NCBI GenBank assembly: GCA_000091205.1
Contig: AP006502.2
Origin: Cyanidioschyzon merolae
Taxonomy: Eukaryota
Strand: one strand, 5' to 3'
Length of the DNA: 64,000 bases
How positions within the stretch are numbered: position 1 is the stretch's first letter; each line of letters opens with the position of its first letter. A program made the position numbers and the translations under genes. Below, one piece after another: positions 3,632-48,408 of this stretch. The notes beneath the pieces were generated by a model. It was not told where the DNA came from. It did not search any database and was given only the letters and a program-made list of their open reading frames with translations.

Positions 3632-4678
3632 GTGTTTTCTGCAATGGTGCAGTCGGTAAACCTGGATACGGGGCAAGCGGAGGAATTCGAGTTGAAGCAG
3701 GGGCAGTGCGGTGCCGCACAGGAACCGCTCATACCAATCCGCATCGATGTGCAGTGGAACGATGCCCGTGTTGTCGATGCCTTTCTTTGGAACCAATATG
3801 AAGAACGCCTCACACCGGAGACGTTTGCCCCACACCTGCTCCGGGATCTGCAGCAACCTATGGAGCTTGCAAACGGTGTTGCGTCCGCCATTCGCGAGCA
3901 GATAGAGCAGTACTCTCCCTTTGAACACGAGCTATTCGCGGATCGTTCCGAGTTGCGCCTGCTCTTTACCTTGGATGTGCGAATAGGGAATATCCAGCTA
4001 CAGGATACCTTTGAGTGGGATGCGCTCTCATTCGAAAGCGATCCCGAGCAGTTTTCGCGGATGCTCTGTCGAGAACTGGGCCTTGGAACAGAGTTTAGCA
4101 CCGCCATCGCCCATGCGATTCGTGAACAGTTGCAGGACGTTTGGGCGGGTGTCGCTTACTCCCAAAAAAGCATTCTGGAATCCGTGCATCCGCGTATAAC
4201 GATTCGGGATGGCGAAGATTGGGAGCTTCCGGGTCCCGCGGTGCGCGTGCTCTCCAAGGAGGAACTCGAAGAGGTGGAGCGGCGTGAGGATCGCAGTGCT
4301 CGCGCCATGCGTCGCAGTCAGCGCAAATCCGGGCTGAGCTGGGGCCTGGCCCCAGCGCCAACGCTCCGGGAGCGCTCCGTGGACAGCACTGTGTTTTTCG
4401 GGCCGCGGCAAGCCGTGGCCGAAGAGCGCCCCAAACGGCGTCGCAACCAGAATCCTGTTGACTCTGAGGGTCGGCCCGTCGTAGCCTGCAGCCATTGTGG
4501 TCGACATCCGTCAAAAACGCCTTTAATGCGAGTTGGACCACGTGGTCTCAAGAACGAAATCTGCAATAGTTGTGGCCTGTACTATCGCAAATATGGAGAG
4601 CTTCCCACGCATTATAAGGGCTATCCCATTGGGCCTGGGTATCCGCCACCTCCTGGAAGTCAGGAACATGATGCATAA
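3632..4678 (+). CDS. SNF5/SMARCB1-family protein (SWI/SNF core subunit) with both SNF5 repeats and a C-terminal GATA-like C4 zinc finger.
   Basis: Rpt1 (LIPIRIDVQWNDARVVDAFLWN...ASAIREQIEQY) and Rpt2 (RIGNIQLQDTFEWD...LCRELGLGTEFSTAIAHAIREQL) align to SMARCB1/BSH. The C-terminus reads CSHCG...TPLMRVGPRG...CNSCGLYYRK. Confidence 0.8.
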   Translation: MFSAMVQSVNLDTGQAEEFELKQGQCGAAQEPLIPIRIDVQWNDARVVDAFLWNQYEERLTPETFAPHLLRDLQQPMELANGVASAIREQIEQYSPFEHELFADRSELRLLFTLDVRIGNIQLQDTFEWDALSFESDPEQFSRMLCRELGLGTEFSTAIAHAIREQLQDVWAGVAYSQKSILESVHPRITIRDGEDWELPGPAVRVLSKEELEEVERREDRSARAMRRSQRKSGLSWGLAPAPTLRERSVDSTVFFGPRQAVAEERPKRRRNQNPVDSEGRPVVACSHCGRHPSKTPLMRVGPRGLKNEICNSCGLYYRKYGELPTHYKGYPIGPGYPPPPGSQEHDA

Positions 4679-5950
4679 GGATTCGTCCACACACGAGATA
4701 AGGAGGAGGTGCGAGCGGCACCAAGAACGGCAGCATCGTCGCATTCGACTTGTCCCGGGCGTAGCGCTGGCGCCTTTAGCCCCAGTTGATGCTGCCATTT
4801 TCGAATGCATCGTAGCGCGTATGTCGTCGCCCCGTCAGATGCACGAAAGTATTTGGCAATTGTGTCGCGGTCTGCGCTAGACAGGCGTTTTGGAATCCTA
4901 TGTTTTCAGAACCGCACATGCGCCATGATATCATACGAAGCGCGTATGGCATCGCCACCGATGGTCACAATCCGCAGATGCTGGTGCTAACCTGAAACGA
5001 CGGCGAGTGCTGCGTTCCGGAGACAACGTGTGCCTGCGTGCCTCGCCTCGGTGCGCGGCGTAGCTGCCGGGCTCACTCTGAGCGCCCCATACAGCTCGAG
5101 GAGATGCTGCGAATTGTGTGTCAGTACCGGCTCGTCGTTTTCCTCGTCCGATATCCGCGCTAATTGCTGTGTGCGAATGATACGCTTTAGCTAGTACCGC
5201 TATGCGATAGCCGCTAGCAGCCCAAGACCTGGGAGGCCCAGCGACCTTGCCATCGCCCAGTTCACGCGCATCCGCCAACCATTCCTGGCATGGCGGATGT
5301 GTCTTCCGAATCTGTGTGCCTCGGCCGAAACGGAGGCTTGTATGCATCCATTCCCGAAAAGAAGTTCGGCGAGCCGTGTGCGTCCTCCGGAATTTCGTGT
5401 GGCGATACGTCGACCCGGACTTTGCCCTGTGCTAGATCCATCGGCGGGGGTGGGCTCCATTGCGGGGATGCGCTCTAAAGCCTGCGCATCGGCGCGCAAG
5501 TACCCGGTTGCACGAAAGCGCTTCCCTCAGGTTTCCAGGTGTCACCAGACGCTGTCCTTCGGCTCGCGAATAGGTCCACGCGGACCTGGAATCGCCCTGA
5601 TCGCGCTGCTGGCTTAAGAACGGACGCTAGACGCACATGTACGCTTGAAACTGGGCGCTCGCCAACGGTCCAACGCTTGACCAGAGTCGAGACGAGTGCG
5701 ACCCTAGAAAGGTCCAGAAGACGTCGGTGATTCTGACGGTTTTTGCGCAAATGCATACGGCTCGAGCTAGGCGCCGTTGTTTCCGAACGCGCACACCTAC
5801 GCACAGCGTTCGCTCAGCTGCAGCCGGGCACCGAATCGCGACAACGCCTACGATCCGCCTAGATCCATCGTAATCATGCCGATAGACGGAAGCAATGGCC
5901 GCTTGCCGTGTCTGCTGGTGGCTGCATGCGATGCAGGTACGCTCTAGGCG

Positions 5951-34332: not shown

Positions 34333-34944
34333 TTAGCCAGCACGTTGAACGCTTCGGCGAATACGCGTTTCGTGCTTCCGCGTTACCGAAGAAGTTCTCG
34401 ACCGCAGCGCGGTCTCATGGTTTTCTACCAAAGATCGTCCGCATGTGCGATTTCGACGCTCGTTTTCGCTTTGAATCAAGAATGCAATGCATCCGTCTTC
34501 GCTCAGTACGGTGCTCCGAGCGTCTAGATGGGCAATGAGTGCGCCTATCCGCTTGGTAATATGCCTGCTGGCGTCGTGCATGCGTGACTCCCGACAAAAT
34601 CCTGGCATGGAAAAGAAGAGCAGCATCATTTGCTTCCCGTTCAGATCTTCGGGTCCGTCCTCATGATTTAGAAGTACGACAACGGCCAAGACATCTTTCA
34701 ACTCAGGAGTTTTACGCTCTATCAAATCTTTCTCTTCATCTACCTGGATCAGTTGAACATGAGTTTCGTTGGTTTTCTTATAACTAGGTTTCATAAAGTG
34801 CATGCAGATAGATATTCCATCGTTCTCCATGGGCCATGTACATTGCTGTCGAGTTCCTCCCTGTAGATGAAGATCCTTGATAGAGCTCGTCGAATACGCT
34901 TTGGAAAGCGGTTTGAGTGCTTCGTATTTGGCCGCAGAGGCCAT
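34333..34944 (-). CDS. Hypothetical ORF (203 aa) inside the lower-GC island. It may be spurious or a decayed element.
   Basis: ORF only, with no recognisable motif. Lies in the compositionally atypical 33.4-37.1 kb region. Confidence 0.15.
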   Translation of the reverse strand: MASAAKYEALKPLSKAYSTSSIKDLHLQGGTRQQCTWPMENDGISICMHFMKPSYKKTNETHVQLIQVDEEKDLIERKTPELKDVLAVVVLLNHEDGPEDLNGKQMMLLFFSMPGFCRESRMHDASRHITKRIGALIAHLDARSTVLSEDGCIAFLIQSENERRNRTCGRSLVENHETALRSRTSSVTRKHETRIRRSVQRAG

Positions 34945-40232: not shown

Positions 40233-42494
40233 ATGAAACAATTCGCATTCGTGGAGCACGCTGCTTTCGTTTACCCGGCGCTTCGACACACTCCGCGTCC
40301 AGAGAAGACTTGGAGTGCTTCACTCGCGTGCGGTGCGATCCCAGGGAACACTGGTCAGGTTCCAGGCTCTCGGTTGTTGCCGCGCTGGAGACACCGTGGC
40401 CTCGGTCTGACAACCGGCGTACACAAACGCACTGCCAAATACCGATCTCACAGGGGTACAAGCTCCCTGCACTCCGCTCAAGAGAATGCGAACTCGGCAA
40501 AGCCACTAGAGCCCGTGAGCGAGCACCGGCCGCTGCGCATCATTTTGGCTGGCCCGCCGGCTTCTGGAAAGGGTACCCAAGCTGCTCTTTTAGTTGAACG
40601 GTATGGTCTCGTACATATATCTACAGGGGATATGCTTCGGGCTGCCGTCGAAGCGGGCAGTGAGCTGGGCCTCGCTGCCAAAAAGTACATGGACGCGGGG
40701 GAGCTTGTCCCCGACGAGCTTGTCATAGGGCTCATGCAACAGCGCATGGCTGCGCCTGATGTGCAGACAAGTGGTTGGCTCCTGGACGGCTTTCCTCGAA
40801 CCGCTGCGCAGATTGTAGCTATGGATGCGGCGGGTATCGAACCTGACCTGGTGATCAGCTTGGATGTGCCCTTCGAGATCCTCAAGGAGAGGGTCTCCGG
40901 TCGCCGGCTGGATCCGGAAACTGGTCGGATTTATCACCTGCGTTTCGATCCACCGCCAGCGTCGGACAAAGCCCTTTTAGATCGTCTCATCCAGCGTTCA
41001 GATGATGATGTGCAAAAGCTTGCCGTGAGGTTTGAGAACTACCGGGAGAACGTGGATGCGCTAAGGCAACGATATGGCGCGATTATGGCGGAGATCGACG
41101 GGCGTCGCTCAAAAGAGCAAGTCTTCGAAAATATTACCCGTGCAGTTGGCATGCTACGAATGCGACGTAGCTGGCAGATGAAGCGCTCGAGGCCGCCAAG
41201 AATCATCCTCCTTGGACCACCGTTATCGGGAGTGGAAAAGTACGCCGCGAGGCTCTGTAAAGATCTCGGCTGTATCCGCATCTCTACGGAACAAGTCATT
41301 CGAGATGCAGCAGCAGCAGAGCAGACGAGAACGGGTCTCATGATCCGGCAGCATTTGGAGAATAACGAGTTGGTGCCGGATCATCTGGTCGCTCATGTGC
41401 TTGGGAAGCGCCTCGCCGCCGCAGATGTGGAGCAACACGGATGGCTGCTCGACGATGTGCCGCGACGTATCATGAAAGCCAGTTCGCTACTGGATGCAGG
41501 TATCGAACCTGATCTCGTTTTGTTGCTCTATTTACCACATGAAGATCTGGAAGAACGAATGGTTCAACGTCTCTGGGACCCGGAAACCGGTCGCTACTTC
41601 CATGAGAAATATGATCCGCCCTCAGCAGATGATGCAGCCCTCAGAGCGCGATTGATTCACCGCACCGATGAGGATGAGAATCTGGCGCGATGGTTACTCG
41701 GAACGTACTACGTCGTAGAGTCAGAGCTTGAGGCTCAATACGCCGGTAGAATTGTTCAGATCGATGGGCTTGCCCCCGACGAGGAAATTTACAAGCAAAT
41801 GACAGCGGCAATAGAAGCGCGAGGGATTCCTCTGCTGTCCGACTTGACACGCGCCACCTTCGAGGACCTGGAACTCGGGAGTGCATTCATGGTGCTCTAC
41901 CGTGATCCCAAGCCCGCCACAATCCATGAAGTCCGTTGGCGAGGCAAAGGCGCATGGCCAGACCTTTTTACACGGCCACTGCTTGCGATTGGTGATCTGA
42001 TTGCGCTCTTGGTTGCGAGTAGCGTGTTGCGTCTGCTTTATGGCGGCAGACTCATCTTGGATGCGATCGTTTGGAAAACAGCTGCACCGTTTATCATTGT
42101 GTGGATCGTTGGCGCCCCGTACATAGACGCTTTCACGCAGAATGCCCTTCGAGATCGCCGGGAAGCTTTGCTATCTCTATTTCGAGCCTGGCGAGTCTGC
42201 ATGCCCTTTGCGGTCTTTGTTCGAGCGCAGTCCATGGGCTTCGCGCCACCTCTACATTTCATCGTCGCGTTGCTTCTGCTCACCTACGTATTCTTGGCTC
42301 TGTGGCGTCTCTGTTATGTCATTTTTCTACAGGGCGAGTATGATTCAGAGGGTAATAGGACGCTGAGCCTTCGGGATTTGGGGCCATGGCGTCGACCAGT
42401 CGACAGGGGGGCGCCCTATCCCGGCAGCGTTCGTTCCCAGACGCCTCCGTTGACCGACTCTTCATTGTTTCGCGAAACTCTAGGACCAACGTGA
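40233..42494 (+). CDS. Tandem adenylate-kinase protein. AK domain 1 is canonical, AK domain 2 has a degenerate P-loop, and the C-terminal domain is hydrophobic (3-4 predicted TM helices). An N-terminal presequence is possible.
   Basis: Domain 1: ILAGPPASGKGTQAALLVERYGLVHISTGDMLRAAV...GWLLDGFPRTAAQ plus a LID region. Domain 2: IILLGPPLSGVEKYAARL...GWLLDDVPRRIMKA, with P-loop K and G lost. The C-terminus has LLAIGDLIALLVASSVL, FIIVWIVGAPYI and HFIVALLLLTYVFLALWRL. Confidence 0.8.
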   Translation: MKQFAFVEHAAFVYPALRHTPRPEKTWSASLACGAIPGNTGQVPGSRLLPRWRHRGLGLTTGVHKRTAKYRSHRGTSSLHSAQENANSAKPLEPVSEHRPLRIILAGPPASGKGTQAALLVERYGLVHISTGDMLRAAVEAGSELGLAAKKYMDAGELVPDELVIGLMQQRMAAPDVQTSGWLLDGFPRTAAQIVAMDAAGIEPDLVISLDVPFEILKERVSGRRLDPETGRIYHLRFDPPPASDKALLDRLIQRSDDDVQKLAVRFENYRENVDALRQRYGAIMAEIDGRRSKEQVFENITRAVGMLRMRRSWQMKRSRPPRIILLGPPLSGVEKYAARLCKDLGCIRISTEQVIRDAAAAEQTRTGLMIRQHLENNELVPDHLVAHVLGKRLAAADVEQHGWLLDDVPRRIMKASSLLDAGIEPDLVLLLYLPHEDLEERMVQRLWDPETGRYFHEKYDPPSADDAALRARLIHRTDEDENLARWLLGTYYVVESELEAQYAGRIVQIDGLAPDEEIYKQMTAAIEARGIPLLSDLTRATFEDLELGSAFMVLYRDPKPATIHEVRWRGKGAWPDLFTRPLLAIGDLIALLVASSVLRLLYGGRLILDAIVWKTAAPFIIVWIVGAPYIDAFTQNALRDRREALLSLFRAWRVCMPFAVFVRAQSMGFAPPLHFIVALLLLTYVFLALWRLCYVIFLQGEYDSEGNRTLSLRDLGPWRRPVDRGAPYPGSVRSQTPPLTDSSLFRETLGPT

Positions 42495-43931: not shown

Positions 43932-45257
43932 CTACTGTGAGCCTCGCATCCACTGCTGGACGAGGGCACCAAGGCGCCGGATGCTCGCCAGCGGATGCTC
44001 GGGACCGAACCTTGCTCGTGCTGTACTGCCTTTGCTCTCGAGCGCCTGGTGAACAGCTCTTCGCCAACATCCGGAACGCAACTCCTCGATGGTGAGCTCT
44101 ACACATAGTCCCTGGAGGTCGCGACGGAGCGCCTCTTCTTCCAAGAAGAGCGGTCGCCGAACATACACCAGCGGTGTACCAGCTGCGAGACATTCCGCAC
44201 TGATCCCGTATCCGAGTTTACCGAGTACCACGTCCGCTGCCTGGATCAAGTCCGGTACATATGTCGCTGCGCTAGGATGTACGAAGCGTACCCTGGGCGA
44301 TGATGATACCGCGTCGTATTCGGTGAGCAGCATCATTCGCCAAGGCGAGCCCGGTTCCCGAATGAGGTCCACTTGTTCCAGAAACGAGTGCAACGGACAG
44401 CCTTGCTCCCCGAATAGCGTCTTACAGTCGAAACTACCAAAACAGACCAACAAAACACGGGCGGATAGCGAAATGCCCAGACGACGACGCGTTTCAGCTC
44501 TTGTCGACTTCCACGGACGCGATACAGGCCCAGCTGAGAAGCATCGACCGCCAAATGACCGCAACGGAGGCACCAGCCCTGGCGACAGCTGAACCCAAAC
44601 GGGTGCCTCAGACTCATCCATGGCCATGCGCTCGACCAGTGCCCGGTTCTGAGGCGTGTTCAGGCTCGGGATTTCTGATAGAAATTGGTCATAAATAGCA
44701 CTGAACAAGAAGTTCGTGACAAAGACGAATCGATCGGAGAGCGCAGCAGCTTTCGCGGCAGCCGCTGCAAGCGCAACGGCATCGGCAAGAATGAGCTGCG
44801 GCTGCAACCTCCGCAGCATAGCAGACTCGACTCGGATGAGTGTCTGGCGACGTTCATTGATCTCTCGATAAGCCGTCAGTGTAGCCGCTGCGTCGATCGT
44901 GAGTGCATCGCTTTGGATGCAACCAACGTCAAGCTTGACCGCGCGAACGCGCAGCTGCTCTTCAGGACGTAAGCTTTGCGGGAACTCGACGGCGTGCGTT
45001 CGGTAGGCCCCGAGGAGCAGCAGCAGCTGTGCATGAACCGCATCTGGAGACACAGGCGTGCAGAGGAGTACGCAGAACTGGTGCGTGAGCAACTCACAAG
45101 CCAAAGCCAAGGATCGAGTCAAGTGCCCCCAACCGTGACCAGAAACATAGTAGGCTACCAAGCCTCGGGCTTTGTGTAGAGCACCCCAGTCCAAGAAGTC
45201 CTGCTCGCCGTTTTCCGGGGATACCACGGAGCTTTCACGATACCCGTCCGATATCAT
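43932..45257 (-). CDS. Stand-alone L-arabinokinase-type N-terminal glycosyltransferase-like domain protein. No GHMP kinase domain is visible downstream.
   Basis: LVAYYVSGHGWGHLTRS resembles ARA1 FAYYVTGHGFGHATR. LDVGCIQSDALTID resembles LDCGAVQADALTVD. LVYVRRPLFLEEEALRRDLQGLCVEL...SGCW resembles FVFVRRDYFNEEPFLRNMLEFYQCGVEM..MGQW. Confidence 0.65.
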   Translation of the reverse strand: MISDGYRESSVVSPENGEQDFLDWGALHKARGLVAYYVSGHGWGHLTRSLALACELLTHQFCVLLCTPVSPDAVHAQLLLLLGAYRTHAVEFPQSLRPEEQLRVRAVKLDVGCIQSDALTIDAAATLTAYREINERRQTLIRVESAMLRRLQPQLILADAVALAAAAAKAAALSDRFVFVTNFLFSAIYDQFLSEIPSLNTPQNRALVERMAMDESEAPVWVQLSPGLVPPLRSFGGRCFSAGPVSRPWKSTRAETRRRLGISLSARVLLVCFGSFDCKTLFGEQGCPLHSFLEQVDLIREPGSPWRMMLLTEYDAVSSSPRVRFVHPSAATYVPDLIQAADVVLGKLGYGISAECLAAGTPLVYVRRPLFLEEEALRRDLQGLCVELTIEELRSGCWRRAVHQALESKGSTARARFGPEHPLASIRRLGALVQQWMRGSQ

Positions 45258-46656
45258 AGATTGGGCGAGCAGGTCTCTGGAAGCGGCCAGAGTCTGAAAG
45301 AATGGCGCATATTCGATCTTTATGGATCATGGATCTGTCCCGCTGGTCCACGCCAGTGGGAAGCACGCTGGTCAAAGTCCCGCCCGCGCTACGCCCAAGT
45401 CGAACTGGCATAGAACAGGTCCTTTCGCACTGACGTACAAGTCCATGTTTGGGTCTCCTCTGACCGTCATCAGCGCCGGCTGCTGCGGGGCTATTTCTGG
45501 GACTGCCTCGTTTGCTTTTCTTATATCTGCGGCTTTCAATTCGCCGGTTTCCCCGGTTCTTCCATATCCGTTCATAGCAGTCGATTTCGAGATTTGATGG
45601 CAGCATTCAAATCCCAAATTCGCAGCTTCCAGTTGTTCCCGACACACTGCACGCAAAGACGCTAGTCGTGCACTACGCTTCGCTTACCCGTTTTGACTTA
45701 TTCGTGTATAGCCTTCAGTGTGCACGTCGCAGTGGCGATATCTGGCTGTGATCAGGTATTCCCATGCAGCCGCCGGACATTTTCCGCCCCTGAAGGCTGC
45801 CCTGCTGCCCGTGAACGCTTGCTTCATCGATTGGCGCATGCGTTTGACGGGTAAACAAGATGCTCCTGGATGTCGTTCTCCATAGTCGCGCCCAGTACCG
45901 CGTCCTACGATGACGGGCGCTTCTTCTAGCCGATCGTCTCGAAATGTACGCCGTCCGCTGCTAGTGCAAACGCACGCTGTCTCATGCGGTAGAGGATTTG
46001 TGGAACGCGATGTCGTCCACAATGAAACAAGTACCGAGAAGAAAACCCAGGCTGGCGACTGCGTAGAGAAAACTCGATCCGTTGGCGTTCCCGTCGAGCA
46101 TAAGCGCTGATGCATTCTCCACTGGGAGTGAGCGATGCGACGAAGCAAGTCCGAGTCCAAGACCCTATTCGATGTAAACAAAAGAGAGGGCGGCGCCTGA
46201 GCGCATATCGCGTAAGAGGTATCGAGCTGCTGTGAAATGCGGTTTCGTAGATGGCTACCAATACAAGAGGGGAATTTCGGCATTCGAACGTCATCGATCA
46301 CTTGACATGACAAGTCTGGCAACTTTGTGGCATGTGTTTGTGAAGATGTCGTCGAGCGACGGAATCGACATTGTTTGATAGTCAATTCAGCGACGCAAAA
46401 TGCTCCACTCATGTGTTGCCTTGAAACGGTACGACCGACCAACCTGAAGACCATATGATTTGACCATACTGCACATTGGGAACGAAAAACGTCTGCAGGC
46501 TTCCACCTATGCATAGGATCCATACATCAGTTCTCTTATGAACCAGTTTTTTCGAGGTTGACGCGAATCATCTTGATTCCGATAGCGTTACCAAATCCAG
46601 CGAAGAAGCCTGGACGGAGCCTCTCCGAAAAGACACCCGAGCATTCCCCAAAACTA

Positions 46657-46944: not shown

Positions 46945-48408
46945 TTGCCTGATGCTGCAGTGGATGTGCTCGCGAAACGACGCCATGCCGTCTTGACCAC
47001 TCCTGGTACGTTGTCGTTGCCTCCGGTTTCTCAAGCAACTGCTGCGTGTAGAATGACAGCGGCTAGGCCAGTCAAAGCATTTTTATCGGTTTCGAATTGT
47101 TGGTACCTTTCATCTAGAGATCATTCCTCACGCCGCTCGACTTCTGGAAACAGCGACTTGCATCGAGCGCGTTCTCAGCAGGCAGTGCGCTTCCCTCGGA
47201 CACGTTGCCTACCGAGTCGCTGCGTTGGCCGAGTCAGACGCCACGGACTTGCCCTTGAAACGCTGCTCCTACAGTTGCAAGGCTTGGGGCCGCAGAAATC
47301 GCCCTTGGGAAGACAGCAGCTTCAAGTCCCAAACGACAGGGGCACAGACTTAGCTCCGACGCTCGCTGTTGCTTCTGGTGACGATGGCGGTTGCGGGGGC
47401 CGGATCAGCACGCCCGGTCGAGGATGGTACTATCGCTGGGGAGCTGGTGGGTACGCATCTTCGTCCGATGAAAGGGACAACGGCGATGCGGAGCACCAGA
47501 GCTTCGAGCAACCAGGACAGGAGGCTGCCGGTCACGCGAGCTCCGGTACCGGGAGTGACGCGTCCGACCACGAACAGCTGCTGCGAAAGATGAACCGCCC
47601 TGTGGAATCTGTGCCACGGGAACTCTTTACTCTAGACCTGAAAACTGCGCAAACGTACCTTGTAGCAACGGCAAGCGGCCTACCTCGGTTCCTCACCGAC
47701 CGCTTTCCCGCATGGCAAGCGAAAATGCTCGCTGATCCGAACTTTTTCTTCAAACTTGTCATGGAGGAAACCGTCGGCATGGGCCTCTGTCTGACTGGGG
47801 TCGTTCTTGCTCGTGGCGATCGTCTCATGAAAGAACTAGATTTTGTGCTCATCGACACCCTGGTGGGCGCAGCGCTCAGCTTCGTGCTCCTGTGGTTGCT
47901 CGCACCCAGTGCAACGATGCAGTCGCTTCATCAGAGACATCTATCGAGTTCGTCAAATGCAGGACCAGTGAGCGCTCTGCAACATTATTTTCGCACACTT
48001 CCATCATGTGCGTTGGCACCAGCATCGTCAGCGACGTCCTACTCATGGAGTCAACGAGCGGTTGCCTTTCTCTACAAGGGATCGCTCTTTGCAATCGCCG
48101 GTTTCATGGCCAGTGTGATTGGCACCTCCATGGGCTACGCTTTATTGGCTCTACGGAAGCGCCTCACCGGAAAGGAACCGGAAAACCGAATGCCTCCCAT
48201 TCTCATCATGAGTCTGGGTTGGGCAAGTTTCATGTTCGTTTCCGCGAATCCTCGGTACCAGGTGGTGACGGCGGCAGAGCTTTTCATTTATGAAAAGGCG
48301 TCACCTGCGGTTGCCAAAGCCAGCACGGCTATTCTGCGCACCGTAAACAGTATTGCCGGAGGTGCAACTTGGGTGCTCTGGGCTCGAGCGTTTGGACTCA
48401 ACCAGTAG
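46945..48408 (+). CDS. RETICULATA-related (DUF3411) chloroplast-envelope-type membrane protein with a long low-complexity N-terminal region. The start is uncertain.
   Basis: DPNFFFKLVMEETVGMGLCLTGVVLARGDRLMKELDFVLIDTLVGAALSFVLLWLLAPS and downstream TM segments match the conserved core of RER/DUF3411 proteins as recalled from memory. Confidence 0.5.
   Translation: MPDAAVDVLAKRRHAVLTTPGTLSLPPVSQATAACRMTAARPVKAFLSVSNCWYLSSRDHSSRRSTSGNSDLHRARSQQAVRFPRTRCLPSRCVGRVRRHGLALETLLLQLQGLGPQKSPLGRQQLQVPNDRGTDLAPTLAVASGDDGGCGGRISTPGRGWYYRWGAGGYASSSDERDNGDAEHQSFEQPGQEAAGHASSGTGSDASDHEQLLRKMNRPVESVPRELFTLDLKTAQTYLVATASGLPRFLTDRFPAWQAKMLADPNFFFKLVMEETVGMGLCLTGVVLARGDRLMKELDFVLIDTLVGAALSFVLLWLLAPSATMQSLHQRHLSSSSNAGPVSALQHYFRTLPSCALAPASSATSYSWSQRAVAFLYKGSLFAIAGFMASVIGTSMGYALLALRKRLTGKEPENRMPPILIMSLGWASFMFVSANPRYQVVTAAELFIYEKASPAVAKASTAILRTVNSIAGGATWVLWARAFGLNQ

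Follow-up and report, generated by a model that had tools for sequence, protein, structure and literature searches.

A 64,000-nucleotide stretch of contig AP006502.2 from the red alga Cyanidioschyzon merolae (hereafter the window) contains a gene whose product joins two adenylate kinase (ADK) domains to a membrane domain of the DUF3054 family. We consider it likely that this protein is an ADK tethered to a plastid membrane, and that its second ADK-fold domain has been kept as a non-catalytic pseudo-enzyme. The gene itself was already annotated: XP_005539518.1 is named 'probable adenylate kinase, chloroplast precursor' in the C. merolae 10D database, a label that comes from the genome's annotators. 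What is new is the tethering of a red-algal ADK through DUF3054, together with a pseudo-ADK domain that is lineage-specific and under selection. The system as such is of a familiar kind: the gene carries an annotation, its architecture is the red-algal norm, and any mechanism beyond tethering is only proposed here. Features of the gene and of its surroundings are collected in Table 1.

Table 1. Features of the ADK-ADK-DUF3054 gene and its neighbourhood (window positions; aa, amino acids of the protein)
Feature	Position	Strand	Basis
Complete intron-less coding sequence, 753 aa plus stop	40233..42494	+	identical to XP_005539518.1 / BAM83482.1 / UniProt M1VIP1
N-terminal extension, aa 1-100, putative plastid transit peptide	40233..40532	+	composition, disorder, divergence
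ADK domain 1, canonical long-type with LID, aa 101-312	40533..41168	+	Pfam, residue table, AlphaFold
Intact Walker A / P-loop GPPASGKGTQ	40551..40580	+	read directly
ADK domain 2, ADK fold with LID, aa 322-530	41196..41822	+	Pfam, solved-ADK matches, AlphaFold
Degenerate P-loop GPPLSGVEKY, identical in Cyanidiococcus	41214..41243	+	read directly, alignment
Linker, aa 531-579, one predicted helix then a low-confidence stretch	41823..41969	+	model, alignment
DUF3054 (PF11255) four-helix transmembrane bundle, aa 580-701	41970..42335	+	Pfam, hydropathy, AlphaFold
C-terminal tail, aa 702-753, disordered, poorly conserved	42336..42491	+	model, alignment
Conserved gene-order block	29981-55688; L001 (Cyanidium), L007 (Cyanidiococcus)	mixed	Pfam, synteny
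441-aa ORF without Pfam match, next to the ADK gene	43932-45257	-	
279-aa ORF without Pfam match	45684-46523	-	Pfam scan
203-aa ORF without Pfam match	34333-34944	-	Pfam scan

An intact and a degenerate kinase domain in one gene

The open reading frame (ORF; 40233..42494, plus strand) is uninterrupted and starts at the first ATG following an upstream stop, in a window of about 56% G+C where long intron-less ORFs occur every 1-3 kb. A homology search returned hundreds of homologous proteins; together with the synteny-supported orthologs described below, they show that the ORF is a genuine gene and did not arise by chance. The representative of its 90% cluster (P0001) differs from the window protein at 4 residues, and 14 full-length variants from hot-spring metagenomes each lie 2-6 residues away from P0001 (15 of the 28 cluster members were listed, one of them a 384-aa fragment). 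The first-pass annotation had taken the kinase and membrane parts as one gene, and this holds: the fusion occurs in three cyanidiophyte genomes with common gene order and in transcriptome-derived red-algal proteins. Two separate genes, or an ORF artefact, were accordingly rejected, the ORF being continuous and both fusion and gene order being kept across the three genomes. A Pfam scan likewise agrees with the proposed domain content, finding ADK twice and DUF3054 once.

Domain 1 is canonical, as had been claimed. Scanned alone, it matches PF00406 with an E-value of 6.9e-45 (153 bits; cutoff 26.8), and the whole protein scores 316.8 bits against TIGR01351, for a cutoff of 168. Both domains were compared, in an alignment with E. 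coli Adk, at 26 functional positions, which are given in E. coli numbering throughout. In domain 1, 26/26 are canonical, comprising the GxxGxGKGT P-loop, present as GPPASGKGTQ, as well as R36, D84, R88, R123, R156, D158, D159 and R167. The full-length AlphaFold model has a predicted local distance difference test score (pLDDT) of about 88 over this domain.

Domain 2 alone is also recognized by PF00406 above cutoff (E-value 1.1e-19, 71.5 bits), so that the check on the second ADK fold turned out in its favor. It matches 95 solved ADK sequences, among them AK8 (2.3e-43) and the maize chloroplast enzyme 1zak (5e-28). Its pLDDT is about 83 and its strands and helices follow the same order as in domain 1, LID included. 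Pfam, solved ADKs and the model therefore bear out the earlier view that fold and LID are kept around a dead P-loop, GPPLSGVEKY. Eleven of the 26 positions are missing in this domain (G10L, K13V, G14E, T15K, Q16Y, G32E, D33Q, G85D, Q92K, R124L and R167L); those kept include R36, D84, R88, R119, R123, R131, R156 and D158. Losses beyond the P-loop (R124, R167, G85 and Q92) had not been listed before, and the statement that the GWLLDD-type nucleoside monophosphate (NMP)-binding region is intact has to be withdrawn: it has D in place of G85 and K in place of Q92, the residue specifying adenine. Established ADK enzymology holds that the P-loop lysine, the anion-hole glycines and a catalytic arginine are needed for phosphoryl transfer. 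Because domain 2 has lost all of these together, phosphoryl transfer by this domain is very unlikely, and its residues point to a catalytically dead module.

Purifying selection on the second domain

Synonymous divergence (dS) is saturated between C. merolae and either Cyanidiococcus or Cyanidium, hence only region-to-region comparisons of non-synonymous divergence (dN) were used. Between C. merolae and Cyanidiococcus, dN amounts to 0.148 in domain 2, 0.107 in domain 1, 0.25 in the transmembrane domain and 1.10 in the presequence, which places domain 2 about 7-fold below the presequence; amino acid identity is 78% in domain 2 and 83% in domain 1. When domain 2 is compared with each of four metagenomic contigs, which represent two protein variants, 2-3 synonymous and 0 non-synonymous differences are found, and the 14 full-length variant proteins show one substitution in this domain, A361T. 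Over deeper divergence domain 2 evolved fast towards the cyanidiophytes: it is 31-33% identical to other red-algal second domains, the corresponding range for domain 1 being 52-54%.

Judged by these comparisons, domain 2 is under strong purifying selection: it is a retained pseudo-enzyme domain and not debris. It should therefore have a non-catalytic job. Pseudo-enzyme domains are common in tandem enzymes.

The fusion across red algae

A search for orthologs, which had been proposed as a check, recovered the same fusion across red algae. Besides C. merolae, the ADK-ADK-DUF3054 arrangement was seen in Rhodosorus, Porphyridium and Erythrolobus, in the cyanidiophytes Cyanidium and Cyanidiococcus (the latter 65% identical), and in several red algae known from metagenomes or transcriptomes. 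No Galdieria ortholog turned up, although no search was aimed at that genus. In the proteins examined from florideophytes such as Gracilaria and Agarophyton, DUF3054 is joined to only one ADK, which is of the domain-1 type, with GAPASGKGTQ. On sequence, ADK-(ADK)-DUF3054 is thus the regular red-algal form, common to all classes sampled. The architecture had been called non-standard; this does not apply to the fusion itself, which is regular in red algae, and stands for the dead second domain, which is specific to the Cyanidiophyceae lineage.

Domain 2 is canonical (GAPGSGKGTQ, with all arginines) in Rhodosorus, Porphyridium, Erythrolobus and the proteins P0020, P0026 and P0027. In Cyanidium, K13 is kept and D84G, R156H, D158A and R167T are observed. 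GPPLSGVEKY is shared exactly by Cyanidioschyzon and Cyanidiococcus, and all three cyanidiophytes carry substitutions at G32, G85, Q92 and R167, from which we infer that inactivation took place in their common ancestor and that the P-loop collapsed later. With three taxa compared, the losses would thus represent a stepwise decay.

Among the proteins compared, a degenerate domain 2 occurs only in Cyanidiophyceae and in one further alga, P0028 (L002 5001-7328, SRR31152685). This GC-rich, seemingly intron-poor alga has the same three-part protein, and its domain 2 reads GAPGAGRRAQ (K13R and G14R), with D84S in addition. The inactivation may be related to that of the cyanidiophytes or independent of it.

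In a neighbour-joining tree of domains, the degenerate second domains are basal. We treat this position as long-branch attraction and draw no duplication timing from the tree. A strict P-loop pattern gave no match in the outgroup tandem ADKs (Guillardia, Nannochloropsis P0041 and others), which were dropped from the domain split. Several florideophyte gene models (P0095, P0105, P0106, P0108, P0110, P0113, P0116 and P0120) stop abruptly after the third transmembrane helix (TM3), in unrelated residues; such ends are probably mis-predicted 3' exons of ADK-DUF3054 genes and not true truncations.

The DUF3054 membrane domain

In residues 531-753, PF11255 scores 41.9 bits (cutoff 25) and its match, at residues 585-694, covers profile positions 1-109 of 110. 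Hydropathy and AlphaFold agree on transmembrane helices at residues 582-604, 611-631, 642-668 and 674-700. The C-terminal part is therefore multi-pass, as first described, with exactly four helices instead of 3-4 and a span of about 120 residues instead of about 200. Modelled separately, the C-terminal domain comes out as a confident four-helix transmembrane bundle, with helix pLDDT above 90; in the full-length model, residues 535-572 and 713-753 are disordered. The side that holds both termini has about 12 lysine and arginine residues, the opposite side about 3, so that under the positive-inside rule the two ADK-fold domains would face the stromal, or cytoplasm-equivalent, side of the membrane.

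The family is large: an exhaustive profile search with red-algal C-termini gave 1553 representatives at 50% identity. Its motifs GD (TM1), TAxPF..W (TM2), R (TM3) and WR (TM4) are present here and in bacterial members alike, and G587-D588, A617, P619-F620, W624, R664 and W691-R692 are invariant across red algae. Another family motif, IGRxSHxE at the end of TM1, is lost. In 13 aligned bacterial members its G45 and H49 are invariant, S48 is nearly so and R46 occurs in 11/13; C. merolae has VLRLLYGG and Cyanidiococcus IARIVYSG, where the Arg is kept and Gly and His are gone, the His being replaced by Tyr or Phe in cyanidiophytes. These algae also lack the pre-transmembrane motif EFVRKAEEAxE...NWSGQAG and the C-terminal tail GGLLDGxxMxTTLLRRW of other red algae. 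The three losses suggest that the whole C-terminal two-thirds of the protein, and not only domain 2, was remodelled in cyanidiophytes.

Twenty hits were queried, among which six named eukaryotic stand-alone DUF3054 proteins were found, in Vitrella, Chromera, Fibrocapsa, Nemacystus, Chara and Guillardia, all plastid-bearing; they are 147-366 aa long and have N-terminal extensions. Five long, high-scoring hits were checked as ADK-DUF3054 fusions and all have the red-algal single-ADK architecture, while no ADK fusion was seen among the named non-red-algal hits looked up. The nearest bacterial members belong to Chloroflexota, and the bacterial gene context was sampled in 80 Chloroflexota loci only (L013-L092). 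In Ktedonobacteria, the gene for stand-alone DUF3054 immediately follows a COX3-like gene (18/80 of these loci; neighbourhood at 3681-5453 in the Ktedonobacterales loci L008/L009/L013); in L008, a full cox operon (COX2, COX1, subunit IV, COX3) is located upstream. A conserved 138-aa ORF is likewise found upstream of DUF3054, in 25/80 loci. Proximity of adk to bacterial DUF3054 was considered and rejected, with 0/80 loci.

The invariant D588, R664 and W691-R692 hint that the bundle may do more than anchor passively. Indeed it is possible, if on the improbable side, that DUF3054 is a functional membrane module (a transporter, channel or sensor) coupled to adenine nucleotides, with the dead domain 2 as its nucleotide-binding regulator, a reading that overlaps with tethering. 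The family is ancient as well as large, the above residues and the PF..W of TM2 lie in or near helices, and the ADK fusion is kept in all red-algal classes sampled, in the manner of a 'Rosetta stone' link. The COX3-adjacent position in Ktedonobacteria would put DUF3054 on an energy-transducing membrane, and stramenopiles fuse tandem ADKs to LrgA/LrgB, which are of transporter type. However, no adk neighbour exists in the bacterial loci, and the COX3 linkage is limited to one bacterial order, where it may be inherited gene order only. Four helices are also small for a transporter unless it is oligomeric, and C. merolae is without the family's conserved His motif.

The N-terminal extension and the location of the protein

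The first 100 residues had been described as presequence-like, a description that fits: they are basic (10 R and 5 K, net charge +10), rich in S, T and A (9, 7 and 11 residues) and poor in acidic residues (0 D, 5 E). Residues 1-97 are disordered in the full-length model (pLDDT about 30), a separate Pfam scan of residues 1-100 gave no match, and the annotators' chloroplast-precursor label agrees. Phe is found at positions 4 and 6. It also occurs near the start of the orthologs, as MKRF in Cyanidiococcus, VAFV in Cyanidium and MAF at an internal Met of the Porphyridium model. An N-terminal Phe is needed for plastid import in glaucophytes and probably in red algae, and the extension has the corresponding transit-peptide features: a Phe near the N-terminus in a basic, hydroxylated and acidic-poor sequence (PMC2222254). 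Together with the distribution of DUF3054, this presequence character favours a plastid location, short of proof.

A position in the mitochondrion or in another membrane seems unlikely to us. The presequence is Arg-rich and has no acidic residue in its first 24 positions, which would also suit mitochondrial import, and mitochondria are well known to have ADKs in their intermembrane space. Against this stand the Phe residues at 4 and 6 and near the start of the orthologs, given the import requirement for Phe cited above, and the name chosen by the genome's annotators. Furthermore, all named eukaryotic DUF3054 homologs looked up belong to photosynthetic lineages and, AK8 aside, the closest solved relative of both ADK domains is maize chloroplast 1zak.

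Activity or decay of the second domain

We find it very hard to credit that domain 2 has remained an active (d)NMP kinase whose P-loop is non-canonical, K336 (position 15), for instance, taking the place of K13. Catalytic lysines have changed position in other kinase families, eight functional positions listed above (R36, D84, R88, R119, R123, R131, R156 and D158) are all kept, and strong purifying selection extends to the altered P-loop, shared without change by two genera. The simultaneous loss of G10, K13, G14 and T15 in the anion hole, on top of R124, R167, G85 and Q92, nevertheless argues in the other direction, as does the long branch of domain 2 relative to domain 1. Moreover, two of the solved matches to domain 2, PDB 1e4v and 1e4y, are Gly-loop mutants of E. 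coli ADK (G10V and P9L), made because this loop matters.

Neutral decay of domain 2 to a remnant, or a gene-model artefact behind the fusion, can be set aside almost entirely: domain 2 does evolve faster than domain 1 over deep time, but its ORF is continuous without stops, length and LID are preserved, the low dN and the lack of non-synonymous differences to the metagenomic contigs effectively refute neutral decay, and an artefact would not recur in three genomes with the same gene order and in transcriptome-derived red-algal sequences.

Comparison with known systems

The nearest counterparts are the red-algal orthologs, such as the P. purpureum protein named 'Adenylate kinase 8' (P0022) and those of R. 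marinus (P0019), Gracilaria (P0113) and Agarophyton (P0091), which have the same domain order. They share with the C. merolae protein the N-terminal extension, a domain 1 with G[AP]PASGKGTQ and the four-helix DUF3054 C-terminus. They differ in that domain 2 is canonical or, in florideophytes, absent, and in that they carry EFVRKAEEAxE...NWSGQAG, the TM1 motif IGRxSHxE and GGLLDGxxMxTTLLRRW, of which cyanidiophytes have none.

Bovine AK8 (9fqr chain G8) is also built of tandem long-type ADK domains. It ranks first among the sequence matches to domain 2 (2.3e-43) and among the fold matches to the full-length model (E-value 1.9e-24, 440 columns). However, AK8 is an axonemal protein without membrane domain or organellar presequence, whereas DUF3054 is present here and domain 2 is dead; both AK8 domains are catalytically active. 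As red algae have no flagella, orthology to AK8 is doubtful. The next fold match after AK8 is the maize chloroplast ADK 1zak, a long-type enzyme that shares 45% identity with domain 1 when the folds are aligned. Like the Arabidopsis plastid AMK2/AMK5 class, it is a plastid stromal ADK, the location predicted for the red-algal protein, but these plant chloroplast enzymes are single-domain and soluble, with neither pseudo-domain nor DUF3054 anchor.

For the membrane part, a comparison may be drawn with the N-terminal four-helix transmembrane bundle of PglF-like dehydratases and of large monotopic phosphoglycosyl transferases, to which S. enterica WbaP (8t53) belongs. Identity to DUF3054 is 13%, Foldseek finds nothing significant, and the four-helix bundle of WbaP is N-terminal to its enzyme, while DUF3054 is C-terminal here; the function of the WbaP bundle is likewise not known (PMC10942596).

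A protein of Nannochloropsis oceanica (P0041, 997 aa) also has tandem ADK behind an N-terminal extension, fused to a polytopic membrane domain. Its ADK part, in which Pfam finds two ADK stretches, is 41% identical to the C. merolae protein. Its membrane part differs, consisting of LrgA (aa 578-668) and LrgB (aa 751-974), which are unrelated to DUF3054. PLGG1, which transports glycolate/glycerate in plant plastids, belongs to the LrgA/LrgB family. Besides this ADK-ADK-LrgA-LrgB protein, P0032, P0033, P0040, P0046 and P0053 were noted as stramenopile tandem ADK-membrane fusions. On sequence, the stramenopile ADK-LrgA/LrgB fusion looks like an independent membrane tethering in algae with red-derived plastids.

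Gene neighbourhood

Three cyanidiophyte genera have the same gene order around the ADK gene: ANTH, TPR/Wheel, the ADK gene, an ORF of about 440 aa, RETICULATA-like, RNase_T and Vps18. This common order supports the orthology of the three ADK genes. The RETICULATA-like ORF lies on the plus strand in the window (46945-48408) and on the minus strand in Cyanidium and Cyanidiococcus, which suggests a local inversion. The 441-aa ORF beside the ADK gene has counterparts of 460 aa in Cyanidium and 443 aa in Cyanidiococcus, equally without Pfam match and alike in size and position only. It contains YYVSGHGWGHLTRS, which may resemble the glycosyltransferase-like N-terminal domain of plant arabinokinase.

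Proposed mechanism

In the mechanism that we propose, the basic presequence of about 100 residues, with Phe near its start, would direct the protein into the plastid. Domain 1, to judge from its complete motif conservation, would be the working enzyme and catalyze 2 ADP <-> ATP + AMP. Domain 2, canonical in red algae outside the cyanidiophytes, appears from sequence comparison to have arisen as the tandem paralog of domain 1. It would have lost R167, G85, G32 and Q92 in the cyanidiophyte ancestor (the substitutions are seen, their order is reconstructed), and in the Cyanidioschyzon/Cyanidiococcus line the P-loop would then have been lost too (G10L, K13V, G14E and T15K). At present it most likely serves domain 1 as a partner, structural or allosteric, and it may still bind a phosphorylated ligand through R36, R88, R119, R123, R131 and R156. 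A regulatory or nucleotide-sensing function of domain 2 and adenylate buffering at an organelle membrane, both put forward in the first-pass annotation, stay conjectural. The predicted DUF3054 bundle would anchor the protein with both termini on the positive, presumably stromal, side, so that both ADK-fold domains would lie on the stroma-facing surface of the thylakoid or envelope membrane.

Several points weigh against a plastid-tethered ADK with a pseudo-enzyme domain. In principle, K13 might be replaced in part by the K that the P-loop has at position 15 (VEKY), and the polymorphism counts in domain 2 are small. The plastid assignment derives from presequence character, database name and DUF3054 taxonomy, which leaves room for the mitochondrion, and the predicted topology is derived from the positive-inside rule. 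The loss of DUF3054 motifs in cyanidiophytes means that the membrane module may also have changed its function. Finally, a literature search found no functional study of this protein, of DUF3054 (PF11255/IPR021414) or of ADK pseudokinases, and the C. merolae literature found to mention adenylate kinase does so only within the energy-charge formula.

A further hypothesis, speculative and rather improbable, is that DUF3054 is a small module of energy-transducing membranes, in plastids of every algal lineage and in bacteria such as Chloroflexota, which depends on or controls the local adenine-nucleotide pool, and that domain 2 became an AMP/ADP sensor. Were this true, the fusion to ADK would show the function of DUF3054, and the cyanidiophyte domain 2 would couple the adenylate state to the membrane module.

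Significance

Adenylate kinase sets the ATP/ADP/AMP balance and, to our knowledge, the plastid ADKs described so far are all soluble. Red algae as a group would thus tether a putative plastid ADK to a membrane through DUF3054. In the extremophilic Cyanidiophyceae, the second kinase domain appears to have turned into a conserved pseudo-enzyme by a course that can be traced: it is intact in Porphyridium, part-way changed in Cyanidium and completely changed in C. merolae. Since homologous recombination is routine in C. merolae, this alga offers a tractable case for the function of both a pseudo-ADK domain and DUF3054.

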